DNA of 64,000 nucleotides from a virus. The translations under genes and the position numbers were made by a program. Below, piece after piece: positions 6,608 to 59,330 of this stretch. Each line of letters starts with the position of its first letter. The stretch's first letter is position 1. A model generated the notes under the pieces. The model had not been told where the DNA came from, did no database searches, and saw only the letters and a program-made list of their open reading frames with translations. Location: IMG/VR virus record IMGVR_UViG_3300036987_000083, positions 115,490 through 179,489 of that record. The stretch is one strand, 5' to 3'.

Positions 6608-7069
6608 ATGGGAGTAGATCCGACTAAGGTGGCACTGGCGATGGCTGGGGGCTTGAGTGCCGTGTGCGCTTCCTGTCAAAAGTACTGGGAGGCCCGGGAC
6701 CGTGGCATTCCAGGCGATGCCTGCACTTCCAAGATGAAGTGCGGCTCCCCCATGGCCGGAGACGCTTTTACGGATTATGACGGGCCGCTCAAGGGTGCGC
6801 TTCATCAGTGGTGTTTTGTCTGCGCAAAGCGCTCTGATTTCGGCATTAAAGTTACGGGGCGACTAGTCACCATAGGTGTTTGCAGGGGACACGTACGCTA
6901 CATAGAAGACTTACGCGTAGTAGGGGGGCCGGTGCTGCGCATAGAGGTGCAGGATGCTAACAACGCCGCTCCTGGCGTAATTCCAACGAAGCGCTCATTA
7001 GCAGAGGCTATTAACGAGGTTGAGCGCTACTACGCCAAAAAAGAAGGGAGAGACCCCGATGCCGCGTAA
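6608..7069 (+). CDS. Hypothetical Cys-rich protein
   Basis: CxxC motifs; ORF in gene chain. Confidence 0.55.
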   Translation: MGVDPTKVALAMAGGLSAVCASCQKYWEARDRGIPGDACTSKMKCGSPMAGDAFTDYDGPLKGALHQWCFVCAKRSDFGIKVTGRLVTIGVCRGHVRYIEDLRVVGGPVLRIEVQDANNAAPGVIPTKRSLAEAINEVERYYAKKEGRDPDAA

Positions 7070-7913
7070 TCGAGGGTTATCTCTGCGAATTACACCCGAT
7101 AAAGAGAACAAAGATGTTTTGCGGATGCTGGAGTTGAACTGGAAAAAGCGCTTCGAGAACTTGAAGGCCCAGATAGTTTACCGCGCAGCTTCTAGCTTTT
7201 TGGATACTATCCGCAAGAAAGTACCTTCGACTACAGACACAAAGCAGTACCTCGATGCTTTAGAGCTTGTTCGCATCAAGGGGCTGCCTGATGCGGCAGT
7301 CGGCTACGCTATCCGGTCCAAGCCCAAAAAGGCACGCGGCAGCAAGCTCGGCACGGACAGCACCATCATCTACGTGCAGGCTCGCAGGAGTCCAAAAAGA
7401 CTGAACCCCGAAGTGGCTACACTCGTACGGCACAGCCCTTGGACTTTAGAGTCTTTGCCATTCATGCCCAAAAAGAGTGATGCCTTACTTGTCTACCGGA
7501 AGGTAAGTGCACGCACAGTGGAAAAAGTGACGAAGGCCCGTAAAAAAGACAGCCGAAAGTGGGTGCGAGAACTTAGTCGCAAAAACATTAAGCCCAAGAA
7601 CTCCAAACGAAAGTGGAATTCCGGAAACTCAGGTCTCAAGTCCATCTCAGATATTGCATACACTGCGTTGAACATGGAGTTCGGTACTGGCGGGGTCAGC
7701 GCGCAGCCGCACTGGCGCATCGCTGCTTCAGTATTGAAACGCAAAGAGATTGGAAATATGATTAAAGGTCAAGACTTTGCCAGGTCTGTAACAAAGCCTG
7801 AATCCAAAACGTGGGTGACTTGGCCAAAGAAGACGCAGAAAAGCATTTCGGCTACAGTAGCTAAAACTTTTGTACCGTTTCAGAAAAAGCTTGGAATCAA
7901 GTTTAACTCCTAA
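7059..7913 (+). CDS. Hypothetical basic protein, possible head-tail component
   Basis: ATG overlaps the previous gene; located in the structural module. Confidence 0.5.
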   Translation: MPRNRGLSLRITPDKENKDVLRMLELNWKKRFENLKAQIVYRAASSFLDTIRKKVPSTTDTKQYLDALELVRIKGLPDAAVGYAIRSKPKKARGSKLGTDSTIIYVQARRSPKRLNPEVATLVRHSPWTLESLPFMPKKSDALLVYRKVSARTVEKVTKARKKDSRKWVRELSRKNIKPKNSKRKWNSGNSGLKSISDIAYTALNMEFGTGGVSAQPHWRIAASVLKRKEIGNMIKGQDFARSVTKPESKTWVTWPKKTQKSISATVAKTFVPFQKKLGIKFNS

Positions 7914-22233: not shown

Positions 22234-22306
22234 GGGGCTGTAGCTCACTTGGGAGAGCGCTTCCATGGCATGGAAGAGGTAGTCGGTTCGATCCCGTCCA
22301 GCTCCA
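22234..22306 (+). tRNA. tRNA-Ala(GGC)
   Basis: CTTCC-ATGGCAT-GGAAG; G3:U70. Confidence 0.9.
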
Positions 22307-22377
22307 CAAAGCCGAACCAGAGACGGAGTTCTCGTCTCTGAGAGGCGCCTTTTATGCGCCTCGTGTTCGGCTGTAAT

Positions 22378-22449
22378 GCGCGATTAGCTCAGAGGTAGAG
22401 TATCGGCGTGACAAGCCGGGGGTCGGGGGTTCAATTCCCTCATCGCGCA
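22378..22449 (+). tRNA. tRNA-Val(GAC)
   Basis: TCGGC-GTGACAA-GCCGG. Confidence 0.85.
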
Positions 22450-22523
22450 CAGGGTGTGGGGTCAGGCGAACACTAAGCCTCCCTAAGTGGGCCGGGTTCG
22501 ACCCGGAACACCCGAAATAGTTT

Positions 22524-22556
22524 GGGGCTGTAGCTCAGTTGGGAGAGCGCTTCGTT
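22524..22556 (+). pseudogene. 5' half of a tRNA-Ala, broken just before the anticodon
   Basis: GGGGCTGTAGCTCAGTTGGGAGAGCGCTTCGTT, then unrelated hairpin and HNH. Confidence 0.8.
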
Positions 22557-22589
22557 GACCTCAGCTAGGTCTCGTAGTAGCTTAAATGT

Positions 22590-23036
22590 ATGGGCCTTCC
22601 AAAAAAGCCACGTAATCCCTGTCCAGTGTGCCAGCACACTGTTCAAAACATTCGGAGTCGCTACTGTTCGAATACATGTCAGATGGAACAGCAATACTTA
22701 AGCTACATTGAGCGCTGGAAGGCAGGGCAAGAAAGCGGTAACGTCGGTACCCAAGTTTCTAGTTACGTGAAGAAATACTTGCGCGCGAAGTATGAAAACA
22801 AGTGCTCTCGCTGTAATTGGTCGAAGAAGAATCCGGTGACGGGGACTGTCCCGGTGACCGTGGAACACATCGACGGGAACTGGAGAAACTCAAAAGAACA
22901 GAATCTCGACTTGATCTGTCCGTGTTGCCATTCCTTGACGCCCACCTATGGCAATCTAAACAAAGGACGGGGGCGTCCTATGCAGTTAGTAAGGGGCTTG
23001 TCGTCCAGCGGGAAGACACGGCGTTCGCAACGCTGA
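22590..23036 (+). CDS. HNH endonuclease; stop lies in the anticodon stem of tRNA-Ala(CGC)
   Basis: CSRC..VTVEHIDGNWRNSKEQNLDLICPCCHSLTPTYG. Confidence 0.9.
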   Translation: MGLPKKPRNPCPVCQHTVQNIRSRYCSNTCQMEQQYLSYIERWKAGQESGNVGTQVSSYVKKYLRAKYENKCSRCNWSKKNPVTGTVPVTVEHIDGNWRNSKEQNLDLICPCCHSLTPTYGNLNKGRGRPMQLVRGLSSSGKTRRSQR

Positions 23037-23064
23037 AACGAGGGTTCGACTCCCTCCAAGTCCA
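22994..23064 (+). tRNA. tRNA-Ala(CGC)
   Basis: CGGCG-TTCGCAA-CGCTG; GGGCTTG/CAAGTCC with G3:U70. Confidence 0.85.
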
Positions 23065-23158
23065 CAGCGGGATGGTGTGCAGGTACTACCTGGAATTCGG
23101 GGGCGCGAACGTGGCGTCATCTGGGTACCAGGCGAAGGGCACACCCGCCCATGTTTAC

Positions 23159-23257
23159 GGGGGATACCCTGCGCGGATAAATCGCCTCATAACAAAAGCG
23201 CAATGCAGGGTTTGAGGTATAGCGGCGATTGACTGGGTTCAAGTCCCAGGTCCCCTT
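23159..23257 (+). ncRNA. tRNA-ended RNA with a probable internal pseudoknot
   Basis: GGGGGAT/GTCCCCT plus T-arm CTGGG-TTCAAGT-CCCAG; crossing pairs CCCTGC/GCAGGG and ATCGCC/GGCGAT. Confidence 0.55.
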
Positions 23258-23271
23258 GGTAGTAGTTGTCT

Positions 23272-23382
23272 GGGCCAGTGCATGGGCAAAACCGGGTTCG
23301 ATTCCCGGCATCTCCACTCTATGGGGATGAACTGGTGTTCCTCACGCGCGGGGGTGAACGGGTTCGACTCCCGTCTGGTCCA
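23272..23382 (+). ncRNA. Two-headed tRNA-like dumbbell RNA (two acceptor+T-arm heads, both G3:U70)
   Basis: Outer GGGCCAG/CTGGTCC with ACGGG T-arm; inner CCGGG T-arm with CATCTCC-ACTCTAT-GGGGATG hairpin. Confidence 0.65.
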
Positions 23383-23383
23383 C

Positions 23384-23588
23384 AGTCTAGAAGGCAAATG
23401 GAAAGCCACTGGTAAAACGGAACCAGCGCCGAAAGGCACTGAAGCACGGGCTACCTCGAAAGAGGGTGAACGTAGTCACCTGCATGGTTGCGGATGCACC
23501 GAACGGGTCCCAAAAGGGTTCGCCAGGGAAGCGAGTTTCCAAGGGTGATGTAGCTTTTTCATAGAGGGTTCGATTCCCTCCTAGGCTA
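23384..23588 (+). ncRNA. 205-nt tRNA-like RNA with a giant multibranch variable domain
   Basis: AGTCTAG/CTAGGCT; D-like GGC/GCC; CTGGT/ACCAG; T-arm GAGGG-TTCGATT-CCCTC; insert closed by GGGCTAC/GTAGCTT. Confidence 0.6.
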
Positions 23589-23628
23589 TAAGTCAGTAAC
23601 GACCACGTGGTCGCGTCGTAGCGGTAAT

Positions 23629-23701
23629 GGGGCACTAGCTCAGTTGGGAGAGCGTCGCGTTTGCAATGCGAAGGTCATCGGTTCGATCCCGATGTGCTCC
23701 A
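23629..23701 (+). tRNA. tRNA-Ala(TGC)
   Basis: TCGCG-TTTGCAA-TGCGA. Confidence 0.9.
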
Positions 23702-23704
23702 CTT

Positions 23705-23880
23705 AGGTAAGGTAGTCGGCTTAAGAGCAGCCAGCTTTAATGAGTGGGACCCCCTTCAGGACGCGAGCGCGGCGAAATGAAGGAAACGGAAGTAACCTCA
23801 GCAACCGTTACGCCCCGGGTCATACCCGGGAACCGAACACCCGCTTTGGTTTCCCTTTGGCGTAGCAGCACGCCTTGCCT
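23705..23880 (+). ncRNA. RNA mimicking 23S rRNA H43-H44 (L11/GTPase-associated centre) with a ~110-nt insertion
   Basis: GTCGGCTTAAGAGCAGCCAGCTTTAATGAGTG..GCGTAGCAGCAC, closed by AGGTAAGG/CCTTGCCT. Confidence 0.7.
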
Positions 23881-23946
23881 AAACTAAAGTTCTGGTACGA
23901 CAGTTCCGATTAACCCTGACGCTGCCGAACGTTGGGACAAGCTAAT

Positions 23947-24019
23947 GCTGCTATAGCTCAACTGGTGGAGCCCCTCCTTGGTAAGGAGGAGGATGAGAGT
24001 TCAAATCTCTCTGGCAGCT
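23947..24019 (+). tRNA. tRNA-Thr(GGT)
   Basis: CCTCC-TTGGTAA-GGAGG. Confidence 0.9.
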
Positions 24020-24028
24020 TGTTTGTTT

Positions 24029-24070
24029 TTGGTAAGTGAGAGGTCCTGGGTTCGAATCCCATCGGGAGCA
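24029..24070 (+). pseudogene. 3' half of a second tRNA-Thr(GGT), starting at the anticodon loop
   Basis: TTGGTAA-GTGAG-AGGTC-CTGGGTTCGAATCCCAT-CGGGAGCA. Confidence 0.75.
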
Positions 24071-24071
24071 T

Positions 24072-24278
24072 ATGAAAAAAGCAATCAAGGCCGGAGAGAC
24101 GCCTGTGCGGCACGCTGATTGGACGATAGTAGTTCACGAAAAGGACCAAACTACTTGCAAGCACGGCTCAGGCAATTGTGAAACGTGTGGCACTAGTAAT
24201 CACCGCGATAGGCGGCACACGACTACTGGCGGTAAAGGGTTGGTCGCTCAGCTTCGAGAGAAGAAGTCCCGTAGGTAA
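24072..24278 (+). CDS. Small Cys/His-containing hypothetical protein
   Basis: ATG after GGGAG; CKHG..CETC. Confidence 0.45.
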   Translation: MKKAIKAGETPVRHADWTIVVHEKDQTTCKHGSGNCETCGTSNHRDRRHTTTGGKGLVAQLREKKSRR

Positions 24279-24350
24279 TCCCTTTCGAATAGTGGCAGAG
24301 ACGGACGTCAAACCGACAGTGAGCAGAGTTACCTGTCACCTAGTGATTTT

Positions 24351-24425
24351 GTTCTCGTAGCTCAGTTGGATTAGAGCAGCGGCCTTCGAAGCCGATGGTC
24401 GGGGGTTCGAGTCCCTCCGAGAATG
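24351..24425 (+). tRNA. tRNA-Arg(TCG)
   Basis: CGGC-CTTCGAA-GCCG. Confidence 0.9.
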
Positions 24426-24430
24426 CTGTT

Positions 24431-24505
24431 GGTCCTGTAGCTCAGTTGGATTAGAGCGTTTGGTTCCGAACCAAAAGGTCGGGGGTTCGAGTCCCTCCAG
24501 GATCG
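24431..24505 (+). tRNA. tRNA-Arg(CCG)
   Basis: TTTGG-TTCCGAA-CCAAA. Confidence 0.9.
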
Positions 24506-24637
24506 CTTGCCTACACCCGAAGACTGACACGCACCAAGTGCAAGCTGCTGTATTTGCAGGATAAACTTGATTTCTTGGGCCATGCCGACCTGTGAAGTAC
24601 CCTTGCCCCTACGTCGAAGCACTCCCTGGGGGCACTC

Positions 24638-25135
24638 GTGGAAGCTCTTAAACTAGTATTGGATCTCCCACAGAAAAGGCAGAACACTCCGTTCACCTGT
24701 GGGCCAGTAGCCCTGTCTATGGTTTTGGCAGGATTTGGGGTAGTGAGCACCGAAAAGGGTCTCGCGAAACTCATGAAGGCCTCCCCCAAGCATGGAGTGC
24801 CTCCAGCTACCATCGCAAAAACGGCCAGGAAATTCGGTCTCAAGGCTAAAGCCGTTACGGGACTCACGATTGGTCAACTTGAAAAGCACATCAAGGCTGG
24901 ACGACCTGTAATCGCGGCCATCCAATCCTGGGCCAAGCGGCCCGTGAACTACGCAACGAGTTGGGAGGACGGGCACTACGTGGTGGTAGTCGGTATCGAC
25001 AGCCAGAACGTCCACTTGAGGGACCCTTCAACTCCATCTCTGCGGACTCTCTCCAGAGAGAGCTTCATGCGCAGGTGGCATGACTACAGCAAGGATGAAG
25101 TCTTTGTGCAGCTAGGAATCATTTTCAGTAGGTAA
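24638..25135 (+). CDS. C39-family cysteine peptidase
   Basis: RQNTPFTCGPVALSMVL..GHYVVVVGIDSQNVHLRDP (Cys-His-Asp). Confidence 0.85.
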   Translation: MEALKLVLDLPQKRQNTPFTCGPVALSMVLAGFGVVSTEKGLAKLMKASPKHGVPPATIAKTARKFGLKAKAVTGLTIGQLEKHIKAGRPVIAAIQSWAKRPVNYATSWEDGHYVVVVGIDSQNVHLRDPSTPSLRTLSRESFMRRWHDYSKDEVFVQLGIIFSR

Positions 25136-42828: not shown

Positions 42829-45135
42829 GTGGAATCGCGTCATCGCAAAGTGCTGAGGTCGCTCCGCAAGGTGGTGGAGGCATCGGATCGTCCAGAACTT
42901 CGAGCAGAGCCACCAGATGCTGCGAGTTACCGAGCGGGCAATGCTCCGAACACCTCTCGACGGTGTCCAGAGGGCTTCGCTTTTGACGGAAAGCACTGCG
43001 TACCCGTTAGGAAGAAGAAAAACTCTGCTCCTACTAAGCCGGGTAGCTCCAAGAGCAGCGCGTTGCCGAGAGATCCTCCTGAGTCCCGTCGCCAAGACGA
43101 CCCCGATGACTTCCCGAATACCCGGGAGCACGAAAAGTCCGCCCAGCAAAAAGATATTCCGCTCGTTCCGGATCCAAAGAGCGAAGTCATGCAGCGGTTG
43201 CACAACGCAGTAACGCTTTCGAATGGGTTGCGCTCCTTTGAGTATGCGGAAGCGGAGTACAAGGAATACGCACACAGCGGCTTCATCCAGTCAAAGTTTC
43301 CAGACGCCTTTAAGGACAAGCAGGACTTCATCGCGGAGTTTTTGAACGGAGATCATGTTGCAGTAAGTGACTGGGCATCGATAAAGAACACATCCGCCTC
43401 CGAACAGCCAGAAGGCGATTACCCCAGCCTGTTCAAAAAGTTTTGGGAGTTCCAAGGGACTAAGTGGGCAGAGAAGGGCGTTGATGACAAGACTAATGAA
43501 GAGCGCTTCAAAACCTATTTGGATGGGCTCATTGAGAAAGCCGATGCAGAGGACGAAGAAACTACCCCTCCGGTGATTGTGGGAGTGCACCGGGACCCGA
43601 CGCTCGGTACGGAAACTTCCTGGTTGTTGGCGGGGAACTCCCGTGCGCTGCTTTACGCTTTCATCGGTAAAGCGGCGCCTACTCGGATGGTTCCGCTAAA
43701 AGGTCGGATGCTGCCAGATCCTACCGAGGAAGAGCTTCAAACTGTTTTGTGGCCTGCGGAGTCCTCTTCGGAGGACGATGATGAGCTAGAGCAGAATGTT
43801 CGCGCTGCCGTGCAACAGGTAATCGCCGGGCGCGGAGGACAGCCCCCGGGCGGAAGCCCCCCTCCCCCGGAGGCCGCCGTGCCTCCAGCTCCGGCCGCCG
43901 CACCTCCGGCGGCTGCCCCGCCAGAGGCCGCAGCTCCTCCGCAAGAGGCGGTACTACGGGTGCTGAAGACAATCTTCGAGTCAGAGTACAAACACCCCTC
44001 TGGGCACACGAAAAGGTTGTTCTCCAAAGCGTTTAAGACTCTCGGGTACCCTGTAGGCACTGTGCGCAACTGGGCTCGCGGGAAGGTAATAAAGACCCGG
44101 GATGGCTGGGAAGAGGTACCGGCAGGGACTAAAGCCCCCAAAATTGCCACGCCCTTGGTGCCTGCCGCACAGCATGACCAGCCCCGCCCTAAGCTTGCGC
44201 TTAAGAGGGCTGCAGCAGCGCCCCCTGTTGCGAACCTCCCTGCGAGAGATTCTGACGAAGCTCACTGGATTGAGGCTATTCCGGACTTCCCTGCAGAAAC
44301 GACGCAGAAGCACTATGGTCCGAACCGCGCGCCAAAGGCTTACCGACAAAAGCTGCACAACAGCATCATCTCCAAGTACTTCGACAAAGTGCCTGCACCT
44401 AGCGCGGAGACGCTAAGGACCAAGAAGCCTGTAGCCATCATGCTGATGGGGGGTCCTGCTTCCGGAAAAAGCACGATTGGTGGGGCCTACCCGGACACTC
44501 AATTCATCCACCTGGATGCAGACGCCCTTAAGGAGCACCTCCCAGAGTATAAAGTTGCTACGAAATGGCGAGCTAAAAACGCCGCGAAGATGACTCACGA
44601 GGAGTCTATCCACCTGATGCAACAGCTACGGGAAAAGACTATCTCCGCTCGTAAGAATCTCGTGATGGATGGGACGGGACGACACGTCACTTCTTACCTG
44701 AATATGATTACGAAGCTGAAGACTGCAGGGTACCACGTGAAAGTGGTACTGGCCGACATTGACCAGGACCTGGCCCGCAAGCGCGCCAAAATTCGGGCGC
44801 AGTCAGGGGGACGCTGGGTGCCACCCCATGTTTTTGACGCCGCCTACGCTGCAGTGCCTAAAAACTTCGCAGAGATTGCAAGTGCTGCCCACGAATTTGA
44901 GCTTTGGGACACTCGCCCTGAAGGCGAGCCGCAACTGAAGTGGGAAAAGACAGGTGGAGAAGAGCACATTCACGACCCTGTGTTTGTGGAGCGATTCCAG
45001 AAACAGTATGTTCGTGAGCCCAATCGAGGTGCGGTCTACCCACCTCATAAGCGGAGACCTGTTTCTTTTGTCCCGTCGAAGCAGACAAAGGCAGAGGCTG
45101 TTGCCGCGCTTAAGAACATCTTCGTGCTGGGCTAG
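42829..45135 (+). CDS. Large multidomain protein with a C-terminal zeta-toxin-like P-loop kinase
   Basis: MGGPASGKST..LDADALKEHLPEY..HEES..NLVMDGTG..GGRWVP; internal YPVGTVRNW motif. Confidence 0.8.
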   Translation: MESRHRKVLRSLRKVVEASDRPELRAEPPDAASYRAGNAPNTSRRCPEGFAFDGKHCVPVRKKKNSAPTKPGSSKSSALPRDPPESRRQDDPDDFPNTREHEKSAQQKDIPLVPDPKSEVMQRLHNAVTLSNGLRSFEYAEAEYKEYAHSGFIQSKFPDAFKDKQDFIAEFLNGDHVAVSDWASIKNTSASEQPEGDYPSLFKKFWEFQGTKWAEKGVDDKTNEERFKTYLDGLIEKADAEDEETTPPVIVGVHRDPTLGTETSWLLAGNSRALLYAFIGKAAPTRMVPLKGRMLPDPTEEELQTVLWPAESSSEDDDELEQNVRAAVQQVIAGRGGQPPGGSPPPPEAAVPPAPAAAPPAAAPPEAAAPPQEAVLRVLKTIFESEYKHPSGHTKRLFSKAFKTLGYPVGTVRNWARGKVIKTRDGWEEVPAGTKAPKIATPLVPAAQHDQPRPKLALKRAAAAPPVANLPARDSDEAHWIEAIPDFPAETTQKHYGPNRAPKAYRQKLHNSIISKYFDKVPAPSAETLRTKKPVAIMLMGGPASGKSTIGGAYPDTQFIHLDADALKEHLPEYKVATKWRAKNAAKMTHEESIHLMQQLREKTISARKNLVMDGTGRHVTSYLNMITKLKTAGYHVKVVLADIDQDLARKRAKIRAQSGGRWVPPHVFDAAYAAVPKNFAEIASAAHEFELWDTRPEGEPQLKWEKTGGEEHIHDPVFVERFQKQYVREPNRGAVYPPHKRRPVSFVPSKQTKAEAVAALKNIFVLG

Positions 45136-51796: not shown

Positions 51797-52894
51797 ATGG
51801 ATACCAAGTACTCATGGGAGCCGCTCATTTGGCCTGAACTGGATAAGTCCCCCCAAGACTATATTTACCACGCCGAGGGCTCGGTCGGAGTCCACACCCG
51901 AATGGTCACGAACGAAATGCTTGGGCACGAGGGCTACTCCTCGCTGCCCGAGGTATCCCGGGATTTGCTCCACAGGACAGCGCTGCTCCACGACATCGGC
52001 AAGCCTTCCTGTACCCAGTTCGAGGGGGACCGAATTCGTAATCGGGGGCACGCTCGCGCTGGTGCAGTCCTGTCGCGAGGGCTGCTGTATGGTGAGGGGT
52101 ATGACCCGGTGCTTCGTGAGCACCTTTGCGCGCTGGTTCGCTCCCATACAACTCCCATGCACGCAATGAGGGCCAGTGACGAAGAGGTCCGGGCCACGGT
52201 GTTGAAGGCCAGTCTTATGCTGCGCTGCGACTACCTGACCATGCTAGCCGAGGCCGACAATCGGGGTCGCACTACCCCGGAATCCAAGGAACCCTTCATC
52301 TCCAACATCGGGTACTTCGCGGAATTTGCGAAGGAGTATAACTGTTTCGAGGGGCCTTACCCGTTCAAGAACGACCACAGCAAGTTCCTCTACTTCCAAA
52401 GCGGTGGTTCCCGCGACCCGGCCTACTTGGCGTATGATGACACCCAATTCGAGATGGTGATGATGGCTGGGTTCCCGGGGACGGGTAAGGACACTTGGAT
52501 TAAGAATTACTATTCCCACCTTCCCATGGTTTCCTTGGATGAGATTCGGAAGAAGCTCAAGGTCCCATCAGGGGTGAATCAGAGCCCGGTCATCATCAAA
52601 GCAAAGGAGCGCTTCAAGGAGTTGCTCCGCAAGAAGCAGTCGTTTGTGTTCAACGCCACGAGCTTGAACGCGGATCTTCGATTGCCTTGGATTAATCTTG
52701 CGGCGCAGTACAACGCGCGCATCCGCATTGTTTACTTGGAAGTGCCACTGCCGGAGCTGCTTAGGCGCAACAAGGCTCGGGAGGAGTCCGACCGCCTTCC
52801 TGAGGCAGCCATCTACAAGATGATGGCCAAGTGGAACATGCCCCACCCCTCAGAAGCGCACGTCGTCGAATACCACTACGGAGGCCAGTCATGA
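51797..52894 (+). CDS. HD-domain + P-loop kinase protein (polynucleotide kinase/RNA end-healing-like)
   Basis: YHAEGSVGVHT..LLHDIGKP; MMAGFPGTGKDTW..SLDEIR..NATSL. Confidence 0.85.
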   Translation: MDTKYSWEPLIWPELDKSPQDYIYHAEGSVGVHTRMVTNEMLGHEGYSSLPEVSRDLLHRTALLHDIGKPSCTQFEGDRIRNRGHARAGAVLSRGLLYGEGYDPVLREHLCALVRSHTTPMHAMRASDEEVRATVLKASLMLRCDYLTMLAEADNRGRTTPESKEPFISNIGYFAEFAKEYNCFEGPYPFKNDHSKFLYFQSGGSRDPAYLAYDDTQFEMVMMAGFPGTGKDTWIKNYYSHLPMVSLDEIRKKLKVPSGVNQSPVIIKAKERFKELLRKKQSFVFNATSLNADLRLPWINLAAQYNARIRIVYLEVPLPELLRRNKAREESDRLPEAAIYKMMAKWNMPHPSEAHVVEYHYGGQS

Positions 52895-58052: not shown

Positions 58053-59330
58053 TTGACGATGGCGTTGTCCAGGTTGCAGGGTACTCAGACGGAAGTCTTG
58101 TTGTGGTCCCCTCTTGAAGAAGTCGAGCTTGACGCACAGAAGCAGCTCATCAACACCGCTTCGCTTGCTCAGGCAGTGAAGGTGCTGTCGATGCCCGACG
58201 TGCACACCGGCTACGGTGTTGCTGTTGGGTCGGTTGTCGCTTTGAAGGACGCGGTTTGTCCGAATATCGTCGGCGTAGATATCGGCTGCGGCATGATGGC
58301 TTACCGCACCAATCTCACTGCTGACATGATGCCTAAGGATTTGTCCTCTCTGCGTGCGCGCATTGAAGAGTTCATTCCTATGGGCACAGGACAGTGCCAC
58401 GAAGACCCCTCTGAGTTGATTAAGGCCCCTCAGTACGAGGAGTTGTGGGCTCGCGTAGCTGCTGCGGACCAAACCAAGTGCACCATGGAGAAGGCCAAGC
58501 AGCAAATGGGCACCTTGGGTTCTGGAAACCACTTCATCGAGGTGTGTCTCGACTCGGAAGAGCACGTGTGGCTGATGCTGCATTCTGGTAGCCGTAATTT
58601 TGGCCTCCAGGTGGCGGAAGTCTACCAGTGGAAGGCCTCGATGCTTCCCATCAACGCAAACCTTCCTGACCAATCTTTGGCGGTGCTACCTCGTAGCTCT
58701 CCGGAGTTCATGGCCTATTGGACCGACATGCAGACGGCGCAGCTCTACGCAAAGCTGAACCGCGATACCATGTTTGAGTTGCTCCTTCGGGCACTTAAGG
58801 CTGAAGGCCTTAAGGTCGAGACTACGGACATTGGCGTCAACTGCCACCACAATTACGCCATGGAAGAGGTTCATGAGGGGGAGACGCTTGTCGTAGCCCG
58901 TAAGGGCGCCATCAGCGCAAGGAAGGGCGAAATGGGCATCATCCCGGGCGCGATGGGACGCAAGAGCTTCATCGTAGAGGGTTTGGGCAACCCTGAGAGC
59001 CTGCTGAGCGCCAGCCACGGAGCTGGCCGAAAGATGAGCCGTACCAAGGCGAAGAATACCTTCTCGCTAGACGACCTTCGCGCTTCCACCAAGGGAGTCG
59101 AGTGCCACATCGGCAAGGATGTCCTTGATGAGATTGCGGAGGCCTACAAGGACATCGAAAAGGTGATGCTCTATCAGGCGGATCTTGTCCGTCCCCTGTA
59201 TGAGCTGCGCTCCATCCTAACCGCCAAGGGCCATGATCAGAAAATCAAGGTCGATCGAAAGGCGGAAGCAAAGGCGCGAGAGGCAGAGCGTCGCGAGGCT
59301 CGCACCTTCAAGCAAGGTTGCCGTCAGTAG
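58053..59330 (+). CDS. rtcB: RtcB RNA-splicing ligase
   Basis: MPDVHTGYG..VGVDIGCG..GTLGSGNHFIE..LHSGSR..HHNY..RKGA..SASHGAGR..DEIAEAYKDI. Confidence 0.95.
   Translation: MTMALSRLQGTQTEVLLWSPLEEVELDAQKQLINTASLAQAVKVLSMPDVHTGYGVAVGSVVALKDAVCPNIVGVDIGCGMMAYRTNLTADMMPKDLSSLRARIEEFIPMGTGQCHEDPSELIKAPQYEELWARVAAADQTKCTMEKAKQQMGTLGSGNHFIEVCLDSEEHVWLMLHSGSRNFGLQVAEVYQWKASMLPINANLPDQSLAVLPRSSPEFMAYWTDMQTAQLYAKLNRDTMFELLLRALKAEGLKVETTDIGVNCHHNYAMEEVHEGETLVVARKGAISARKGEMGIIPGAMGRKSFIVEGLGNPESLLSASHGAGRKMSRTKAKNTFSLDDLRASTKGVECHIGKDVLDEIAEAYKDIEKVMLYQADLVRPLYELRSILTAKGHDQKIKVDRKAEAKAREAERREARTFKQGCRQ

Follow-up and report, generated by a model that had tools for sequence, protein, structure and literature searches.

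The tRNA array and the GAC-like RNA

The window, by which we mean the whole 64,000-nt stretch of viral DNA analysed here, is part of an IMG/VR virus record of 179,489 bp whose probable source is a groundwater metagenome, and the major head protein and tail sheath encoded by the carrier phage show it to be a myovirus. On the + strand of the window, 42 tRNA genes form an array (14.4–35.1 kb), in which a 176-nt element lies between tRNA-Ala(UGC) and tRNA-Thr(GGU), on the same strand as both and separated from them by 2 nt on the 5′ side and 66 nt on the 3′ side (Table 1). The initial annotation had described this element as a free-standing copy of part of the 23S rRNA GTPase-associated centre (GAC), comprising H43 and H44, placed between two tRNAs and outside any rRNA gene, and both ARAGORN and Rfam indeed call tRNAs on its flanks.

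From its 5′ end, the GAC-like RNA consists of an 8-bp closing stem (P1), an H43-like hairpin (GGCUUAAGAGCAGCC), a junction strand, a 110-nt insert, a UUUG linker and the H44 tip (GCGUAGCAGC). The paired ends that close the 176-nt unit read as originally described, and the 5′ strand of P1 is the counterpart of the top of H42 (23S about 1049–1056). Within the 1067 loop, A1067, A1070, G1071 and C1072 are retained and 1068/1069 are swapped (AG for GA); the loop variant AAGAG is also present in another member of the family described below (L062). The residues and pairs that define the GAC, namely U1060, A1088, G1071, C1072, G1091-C1100, C1092-G1099, G1087-C1102 and A1095, are all present in the window copy, its H44 loop reads UAGC, and C1072 is combined with C1092-G1099, as the base triple requires. 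Set against a real 23S rRNA copy used for comparison (L099, which reads GGATGTTGGCTTAGAAGCAGCCATCATTTAAAGAAAGCGTAATAGCTCACTGG), the blocks of the element follow in the same order with a single insert of 110 nt between 1090 and 1091, which bears out the earlier alignment of GAC blocks around one large insertion.

An Rfam scan of the window at gathering scores and a scan of 23050–24360 at E ≤ 10 gave no match on the element, no LSU signal and no other rRNA sequence around it, again as annotated; the LSU model misses the element because the 110-nt insert splits it too far. A bacterial 23S rRNA gene (RF02541) was considered for the locus and rejected, as there are no H41, lower H42 or H45 flanks and no LSU match in this interval at that threshold.

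Contigs from a second sample, a coal metagenome, cover 23606–24060 with 0 differences, so that no natural variation can be read from the two samples. No RNA run is listed among the sequencing runs that contain this DNA. A promoter scan of 22300–24700 returned no promoter-like site, and the sole + strand terminator-like site in the same interval (22333–22347) lies about 1.4 kb upstream of the element, and about 1.3 kb before the element and 0.8 kb after it are free of such sites. Farther along, the window encodes an RtcB-type tRNA-splicing ligase and two proteins with polynucleotide-kinase/ATPase-like domains, and the relatives of a neighbouring 165-aa ORF are two distant loci (Table 1).

Several fragmentary features surround the element. 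Just upstream (23262–23600) are tRNA-like pieces without an anticodon arm, one of which consists of a T-arm and acceptor end followed by GGGGAUGAACUGG and matches the Rfam models tmRNA_permuted (40.8 bits, gathering score 47) and beta_tmRNA (32.6 bits); with further T-arm-like matches at 23358–23374 and 23564–23580, these pieces could be a permuted tmRNA-like or Y-RNA-like gene. After tRNA-Thr, at 24030–24072, we recognised by eye a tRNA 3′-half-like piece (GGTCCTGGGTTCGAATCCCATCGGGAGCA, T-arm and acceptor strand) that overlaps the start of an 80-aa ORF (24036–24278). A 148-aa ORF (22590–23036), HNH-endonuclease-like by motifs read by eye, ends inside tRNA-Ala(CGC) (22994–23065).

Table 1. Positions in the window of the GAC-like RNA, its parts and selected neighbours.
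Feature	Position	Strand	Details
tRNA-Ala(UGC), upstream neighbour	23629-23702	+	ARAGORN; Rfam tRNA, 63.8 bits
GAC-like RNA, whole	23705-23880	+	176 nt
P1, 5′ strand	23705-23712	+	AGGTAAGG (as RNA AGGUAAGG); 8 standard pairs with 23873-23880, one of them G-U
Junction and H43 base, 5′ side	23713-23717	+	U1057 A1058 G1059 U1060 C1061
H43 hairpin with 1067 loop	23718-23732	+	23S 1062-1076; GGC-UUAAGAGCA-GCC, DNA GGCTTAAGAGCAGCC
H43 3′ base, junction strand, H44 5′ strand	23733-23745	+	A1077 G1078 C1079 U1080, UUAAU, G1087 A1088 G1089 U1090; TTTAAT-GAGT strand 23736-23745
Insert	23746-23855	+	110 nt, between 23S positions 1090 and 1091
Insert basal helix	23746-23749 with 23852-23855		GGGA with UCCC; first pair G23746-C23855
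Insert hairpins, predicted	23753-23783, 23785-23809, 23814-23830, 23831-23851		fold constrained to family core; prediction only
UUUG linker, insert to H44 tip	23856-23859	+	
H44 tip hairpin with A1095	23860-23869	+	23S 1091-1100; GCG-UAGC-AGC, DNA GCGTAGCAGC
A1101, C1102, G1103	23870-23872	+	pair with U1090, G1087 and U1057, respectively
P1, 3′ strand	23873-23880	+	CCTTGCCT (as RNA CCUUGCCU); pairs with P1 5′ strand
tRNA-Thr(GGU), downstream neighbour	23947-24019	+	ARAGORN; Rfam
165-aa ORF	24638-25132		
Polynucleotide-kinase/ATPase-like domains, two proteins	42829-45135, 51797-52894		
RtcB-type tRNA-splicing ligase gene	58053-59330		phrog_1075, E 1e-124

A large RNA family in phage tRNA arrays

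A covariance model (R1), built from 11 other members (alignment A3) with the window left out and the family structure imposed, matches 23702–23882 of the window on the + strand from end to end (model positions 1–151 of 151; 59.7 bits, E 1.3e-15), and this is the only clear copy that it finds in the 179-kb record. A second match (7025–7122 on the − strand; 14 bits, E 0.024) is partial, covers only the UUUGGCGUAGUAGC part and is probably due to chance. The element at 23705–23880 thus almost certainly belongs to a large family of phage GAC-like RNAs. An exact 18-mer from the window copy is absent from IMG/VR.

The extent of the family was assessed by several scans. Searching IMG/VR with a degenerate pattern for the H43 hairpin and junction strand returned 118 stretches, of which one is the real 23S rRNA (L099), one is an insert-free form of 54 nt (L081) and the remainder share one common plan: P1; GGAxGUy, GGCUUAGAAGCAGCC and AyCx'UUUAAAGAGU; an insert of 27–364 nt; UUUG; GCGUAAYAGC; ACA; and the return strand of P1. 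A pattern scan with U at 1072 added 31 further viral stretches, a scan for the 3′ module only gave 57 stretches in bacterial and archaeal assemblies (mostly MAG contigs, with a few isolates), about 30 of them complete members by the model, and a metagenome scan for the junction variant of the window gave 52. In all, the number of distinct copies is well above 150, spread over viral, metagenome and MAG contigs that come from many habitats, where counts refer to distinct sequences and not to independent evolutionary events. The window copy has the features that characterise the family, that is, an H43 hairpin with a UUAGAAGCA-type loop, an H44 tip of the form GCG-UANN-AGC, a P1 of covarying sequence flanking the core, an insert opened by an R:Y pair and followed by UUUG, an isosteric state of the base triple, and a location on the tRNA strand of an array.

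Cultured phages that carry the element include Cronobacter GAP32, Pectobacterium CBB, Serratia BF, several Erwinia pEa_SNUABM phages, Yersinia fHe-Yen9-04, Xanthomonas XbC2, XaC1 and XacN1, Acinetobacter ME3, Pseudomonas pf16, Astolliot, Milchi and UNO-G1W1, Aeromonas 4_4572 and Paenibacillus Pd_22F, and in every one of them it is either unannotated or labelled as a hypothetical protein. The nearest tRNA lies on the same strand in 87/87 family cases, at a median distance of 13 nt. The insert-free member (L081:1597–1650), itself between two tRNAs, matches positions 1094–1147 of the Rfam model LSU_rRNA_bacteria (49.1 bits, E 1e-12), and Rfam scans of 25 family loci gave two partial LSU matches only (L081 and L024), and no further family matched the elements. 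Over 35 nt, the 5′ module shares about 94% of its residues with real 23S rRNA.

Some loci hold more than one such RNA or other structured RNAs. Two family copies stand close together in L032, L177 and L201, those of L032 (5121–5363 and 5439–5709) being one of each junction type with a tRNA-like stretch between them. In L002, a family member (2150–2284) is preceded, at a distance of about 100 nt, by a GOLLD RNA (1582–2047; 184.6 bits, above the gathering score) that contains a tRNA. Matches to YrlA (Y RNA-like) below the gathering score were found in tRNA arrays that carry the GAC-like RNA (L062:512–644, 42.9 bits; L052:2270–2339, 31.6 bits), and weak YrlA-like and tmRNA-like signals occur near the element in several family loci.

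Conservation of the rRNA fold

The initial annotation had assigned H43 and H44 helices to the element; in the window copy 22 of the 22 core pairs of the family structure are standard pairs, and the helices covary in the family. Among 35 members other than the window, paired cells amount to 91.4% compared to 72.3% in shuffles, and the covariation score is 0.517 compared to 0.146, a value as high being reached in 0/500 shuffles and slid controls giving 0.08–0.17. In these members all six counted pairs of P1 change on both sides, and the insert basal pairs 47:228, 48:227 and 49:226 covary, the first two being 100% paired. The family pair 1058:1080 is G-C in 15 cases, A-U in 9 and U-A in 9, with no mismatch.

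Because the sequence patterns used in the searches had fixed some columns, each module was read in copies ascertained via the other module, and hence the H43 stem, which the 5′ pattern had fixed, in 3′-module copies. Where copies had been found by the 3′ module alone, compensated changes are seen at 1062:1076, 1063:1075 and 1064:1074, and also at 1057:1081 (A-U to C-G) and 1082:1086 (U/A to C/G). Position 1072 changes together with the pair 1092-1099, with C1072 accompanied by C1092-G1099 in 79 copies, U1072 by U1092-A1099 in 16 and 3 outside these states (95/98), a covariation which we take to be that of the base triple known from the rRNA domain (Conn, Gutell and Draper 1998). The two hairpins of the GAC are held to each other by base triples (PMC6239185).

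The linker is nearly constant over 98 copies (U in 97/98, 97/98 and 94/98 at its first three positions, then G in 85 or A in 13), and A1095 is retained in 92/98. The positions at the loop tips (1067–1069 and 1096–1097) are variable in the phage family, with A1067 replaced by G in 3/14 distinct loops and 1096/1097 varying freely. Of the residues listed as non-conserved in rRNA and dispensable for its fold, 1061, 1067 and 1069 (PMC6239185), all three vary in the phage family too. A1095, in turn, is invariant in rRNA because of cofactor contact and not because of folding (PMC6239185), and its retention in the family hints at selection for more than folding. The family keeps the rRNA secondary structure together with the base triple, and the preservation of the fold down to that triple implies that selection acts on something that recognises it.

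Plain MFE folding was set aside as a source of structure, as the family fold is not recovered by it: at −63.3 kcal/mol, the unconstrained optimum lies below the family fold (−52.0) and engages the H44 tip in pairing with a section of the insert. Like the rRNA domain, the GAC fold would thus depend on protein, ions or tertiary contacts. Folding of the minus strand is no more stable than that of shuffled sequences (z = −1.13).

The window copy represents a junction variant, here termed type 2, that is found in about 40 other copies and has GGxAGUy instead of GGAxGUy on the 5′ side, a junction strand shorter by 1 nt (UUUAAU-GAGU) and often G at 1103. Over about 30 metagenome type 2 copies plus the window, the combination at 1057/1103 is U·G in 12, C-G in 3, U-A in 3 and A-U in 1, compared to the non-supporting A·A in 7, C·A in 3 and A·G in 1, and G1103 accompanies a pyrimidine at 1057 in 15/16 type 2 cases. 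In type 2, 1057 therefore appears to pair with 1103, extending P1, instead of with 1081, on the strength of an association that is modest and takes no account of kinship.

The insert always sits at 1090/1091, opens with an R:Y pair and is followed by the UUUG linker. The inserts, which measure 0–364 nt, are wholly dissimilar even where the junction variants are close. The insert of the window had no relative when compared by BLAST with all collected loci and by global alignment with about 30 type 2 inserts, and no recurrent similarity emerged when short-word BLAST was used to compare the inserts with a locus that covers nt 1 to about 2500 of 23S rRNA. A motif CACCCCG-(GNRA or UAAC)-CGGUAAGG does recur in about 25/88 inserts (e.g., L006, L011, L035, L041 and L057), which end in GGCACC-CCG-(GAAA or UAAC)-CGG-UAAGGCUGA directly before the basal helix. 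Another class of inserts, with GAGCGAAGCACC, GUGCGAAAUGCU and AUGUCGGGCC in this order, is common to both junction types (L011, L045, L053 and L219).

Possible roles and known systems

The element, which we predict to encode a stable non-coding RNA, is a self-closed copy of the 23S GAC (top of H42, H43 and H44; E. coli 1051–1108), with a lineage-specific insert that emerges from H44 between 1090 and 1091. The corresponding rRNA domain of 58–60 nt folds autonomously and is the smallest unit to which L11 and thiostrepton bind, and it is the tertiary fold of this domain that L11 recognises (PMC6239185, PMC2719339). Since the covariation of helices and triple shows that the rRNA fold is kept, binding of uL11 is plausible, and we would give it, for the RNAs of the family, somewhat better than an even chance. 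PF00298 (uL11) is absent from the record of the window and from four other carriers, and is present in 14/14 control genomes, so any uL11 partner must be that of the host and the element is not an autoregulatory site. The initial annotation had also considered titration of uL10, whose binding site is the lower H42 region; that region is missing and the closing stem, which covaries freely, measures only 8–9 bp, which makes uL10 improbable as a partner.

The explanation that we favour as a whole, with a probability of roughly 0.55, is that of an RNA of the tRNA array with a GAC fold that acts as an off-ribosome decoy for uL11. The RNA would be transcribed together with the tRNA array, released by tRNA-processing enzymes and trimmed back to P1, which would seal both ends; it would then adopt the fold that the 58-nt rRNA domain takes on its own, and bind host uL11 outside the ribosome. 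As a decoy of the ribosomal site, it could either withdraw uL11 from the ribosome pool or present a false GAC to whatever recognises the uL11-RNA surface. On the other side, the shortened junction strand of the window copy (UUAAU for UUUAAA) and its 1057:1103 pair may affect the rRNA-like tertiary fold, the insert at 1090/1091 might obstruct the uL11 surface, and a decoy would have to compete with ribosome-bound uL11. As to the consequences, withdrawal of uL11 could weaken the RelA response, or the RNA could serve as a false target for agents aimed at the GAC, as a trap for factors or as a scaffold for the insert; we would not consider any particular one of these likely. Tentative, with the odds against it, is also the broader proposition that in large phages from many lineages the tRNA arrays give rise to a miniature copy of the GAC that binds uL11 and acts in infected cells as a false ribosome surface. 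Such a copy would prevent RelA from triggering the stringent response, by stripping or capturing uL11, or would absorb host effectors aimed at the GAC.

A different and rather unlikely reading is that the RNA is not a protein sponge but a target, which alone or with uL11 would offer a false GAC to agents that attack or bind the site (host defence or competitor nucleases, RNA ADP-ribosyltransferases, methyltransferases or thiopeptide antibiotics) and would spare the ribosomes of the infected cell. This would fit with the loops, in which A1067 and A1095 are largely retained, and with the isolated 58-nt domain being a substrate for the Tsr methyltransferase and a binder of thiostrepton (PMC2719339). 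The RtcB ligase and polynucleotide-kinase-like proteins encoded in the window suggest that the phage expects RNA damage, and this investment in RNA repair matches a defensive role of the element loosely, without being proof of it. The element also sits in a tRNA array, and phage tRNA arrays are tied to counter-defence against RNA-cleaving systems. Against this reading stand the substitutions of A1067 by G and the free variation of 1096/1097; a stoichiometric decoy would have to exceed the number of ribosomes, and we know of no phage-defence effector that targets H43/H44.

We rate as still less probable that the RNA, probably as a uL11 RNP, binds a translational GTPase or RelA and thereby changes elongation or dampens the stringent response. 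Isolated oligoribonucleotides of the thiostrepton domain are bound by EF-G, and the activation of RelA depends on uL11. A1095 is conserved though dispensable for folding, and the GAC is the contact site for ribosome cofactors in translation (PMC6239185); however, positions 1067–1069 and 1096–1097 at the loop tips vary, and a regex search for the sarcin-ricin-loop motif found none in 88 inserts, that of the window included. The affinity of factors for isolated GAC RNA is, moreover, weak.

It is improbable, too, that the GAC fold is in essence a compact nuclease-resistant clamp or uL11 handle that seals the ends, with the variable insert binding a lineage-specific phage or host partner. The range and dissimilarity of the inserts and the recurrence of some insert classes are what such a scaffold would lead one to expect, whereas the insert-free member and those with inserts of 27–47 nt indicate that the core alone is maintained, the core is much more conserved than any insert, and that of the window is without a detectable relative. 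That the element is an inert remnant, be it a fragment captured from host 23S rDNA or just a spacer or a signal for processing within the tRNA array, has next to no credibility despite the close identity of the 5′ module to real 23S rRNA, given that no rRNA flanks it, the closing stem covaries, the insert position is constant, compensated changes reach the base triple and diverged copies occur by the hundreds in unrelated phages.

If the partner is uL11, or a factor that docks there, the family would constitute an unseen phage route to manipulate translation, the stringent response or ribosome-directed immunity, and a viral decoy of a ribosomal functional centre would, if true, be a class of counter-measure not described so far. 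With its naturally varied inserts at a single position in H44, the family offers variants for studying the folding and protein recognition of a classic RNA model, and the cultured carriers make the family directly testable. The initial annotation knew of no family like this, and we found none: although the family is widespread, neither Rfam 15 nor the literature searched holds a description of it or of any other virus-encoded free-standing copy of an rRNA functional domain.

The closest known counterpart is the 23S GAC itself, with which the phage RNA shares the same helices in the same order, the same 1067 loop, a near-identical 1095 loop, the pairs G1087-C1102 and 1090:1101, the triple 1072·(1092-1099) with the same kind of compensated switch, and the junction strand UUUAA (one nt shorter in the window copy). 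In contrast to the GAC, the phage RNA is closed by a stem of its own with arbitrary sequence and without lower H42, is encoded among tRNA genes outside any rRNA gene and has, inside H44, an insert of 0–364 nt (110 in the window) together with UUUG, and the window copy would pair 1057 with 1103. A second comparison is with the leaders of r-protein operons (e.g., L10, L1, L20 and S15), described as rRNA mimicry where PMC7247131 cites the review by Meyer 2018, in which likewise an RNA outside the ribosome reproduces the rRNA binding site of an r-protein. These leaders are cis-acting mRNA segments upstream of the regulated gene that copy a few binding determinants, whereas the phage RNA stands alone between tRNAs, copies a whole tertiary domain and has no r-protein gene nearby. 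A paper that describes 20 new rRNA-mimicking leaders mentions neither an L11 leader nor phages. An autoregulatory leader was considered for the element and rejected, as the next gene is a tRNA, five carriers lack a uL11 gene and no Rfam leader matches. YrlA and other Y-RNA-like tRNA mimics, GOLLD and tmRNA occupy the same niche in phage tRNA regions; their folds are unrelated, and none of them matches the element. Finally, 6S RNA and RNAs of the CsrB/RsmY type are abundant structured RNAs that imitate the nucleic-acid target of a protein and titrate that protein. The logic that we propose is the same and comes without any relation in sequence or structure, and the sequestration proposed here would have a functional centre of the ribosome as its target.
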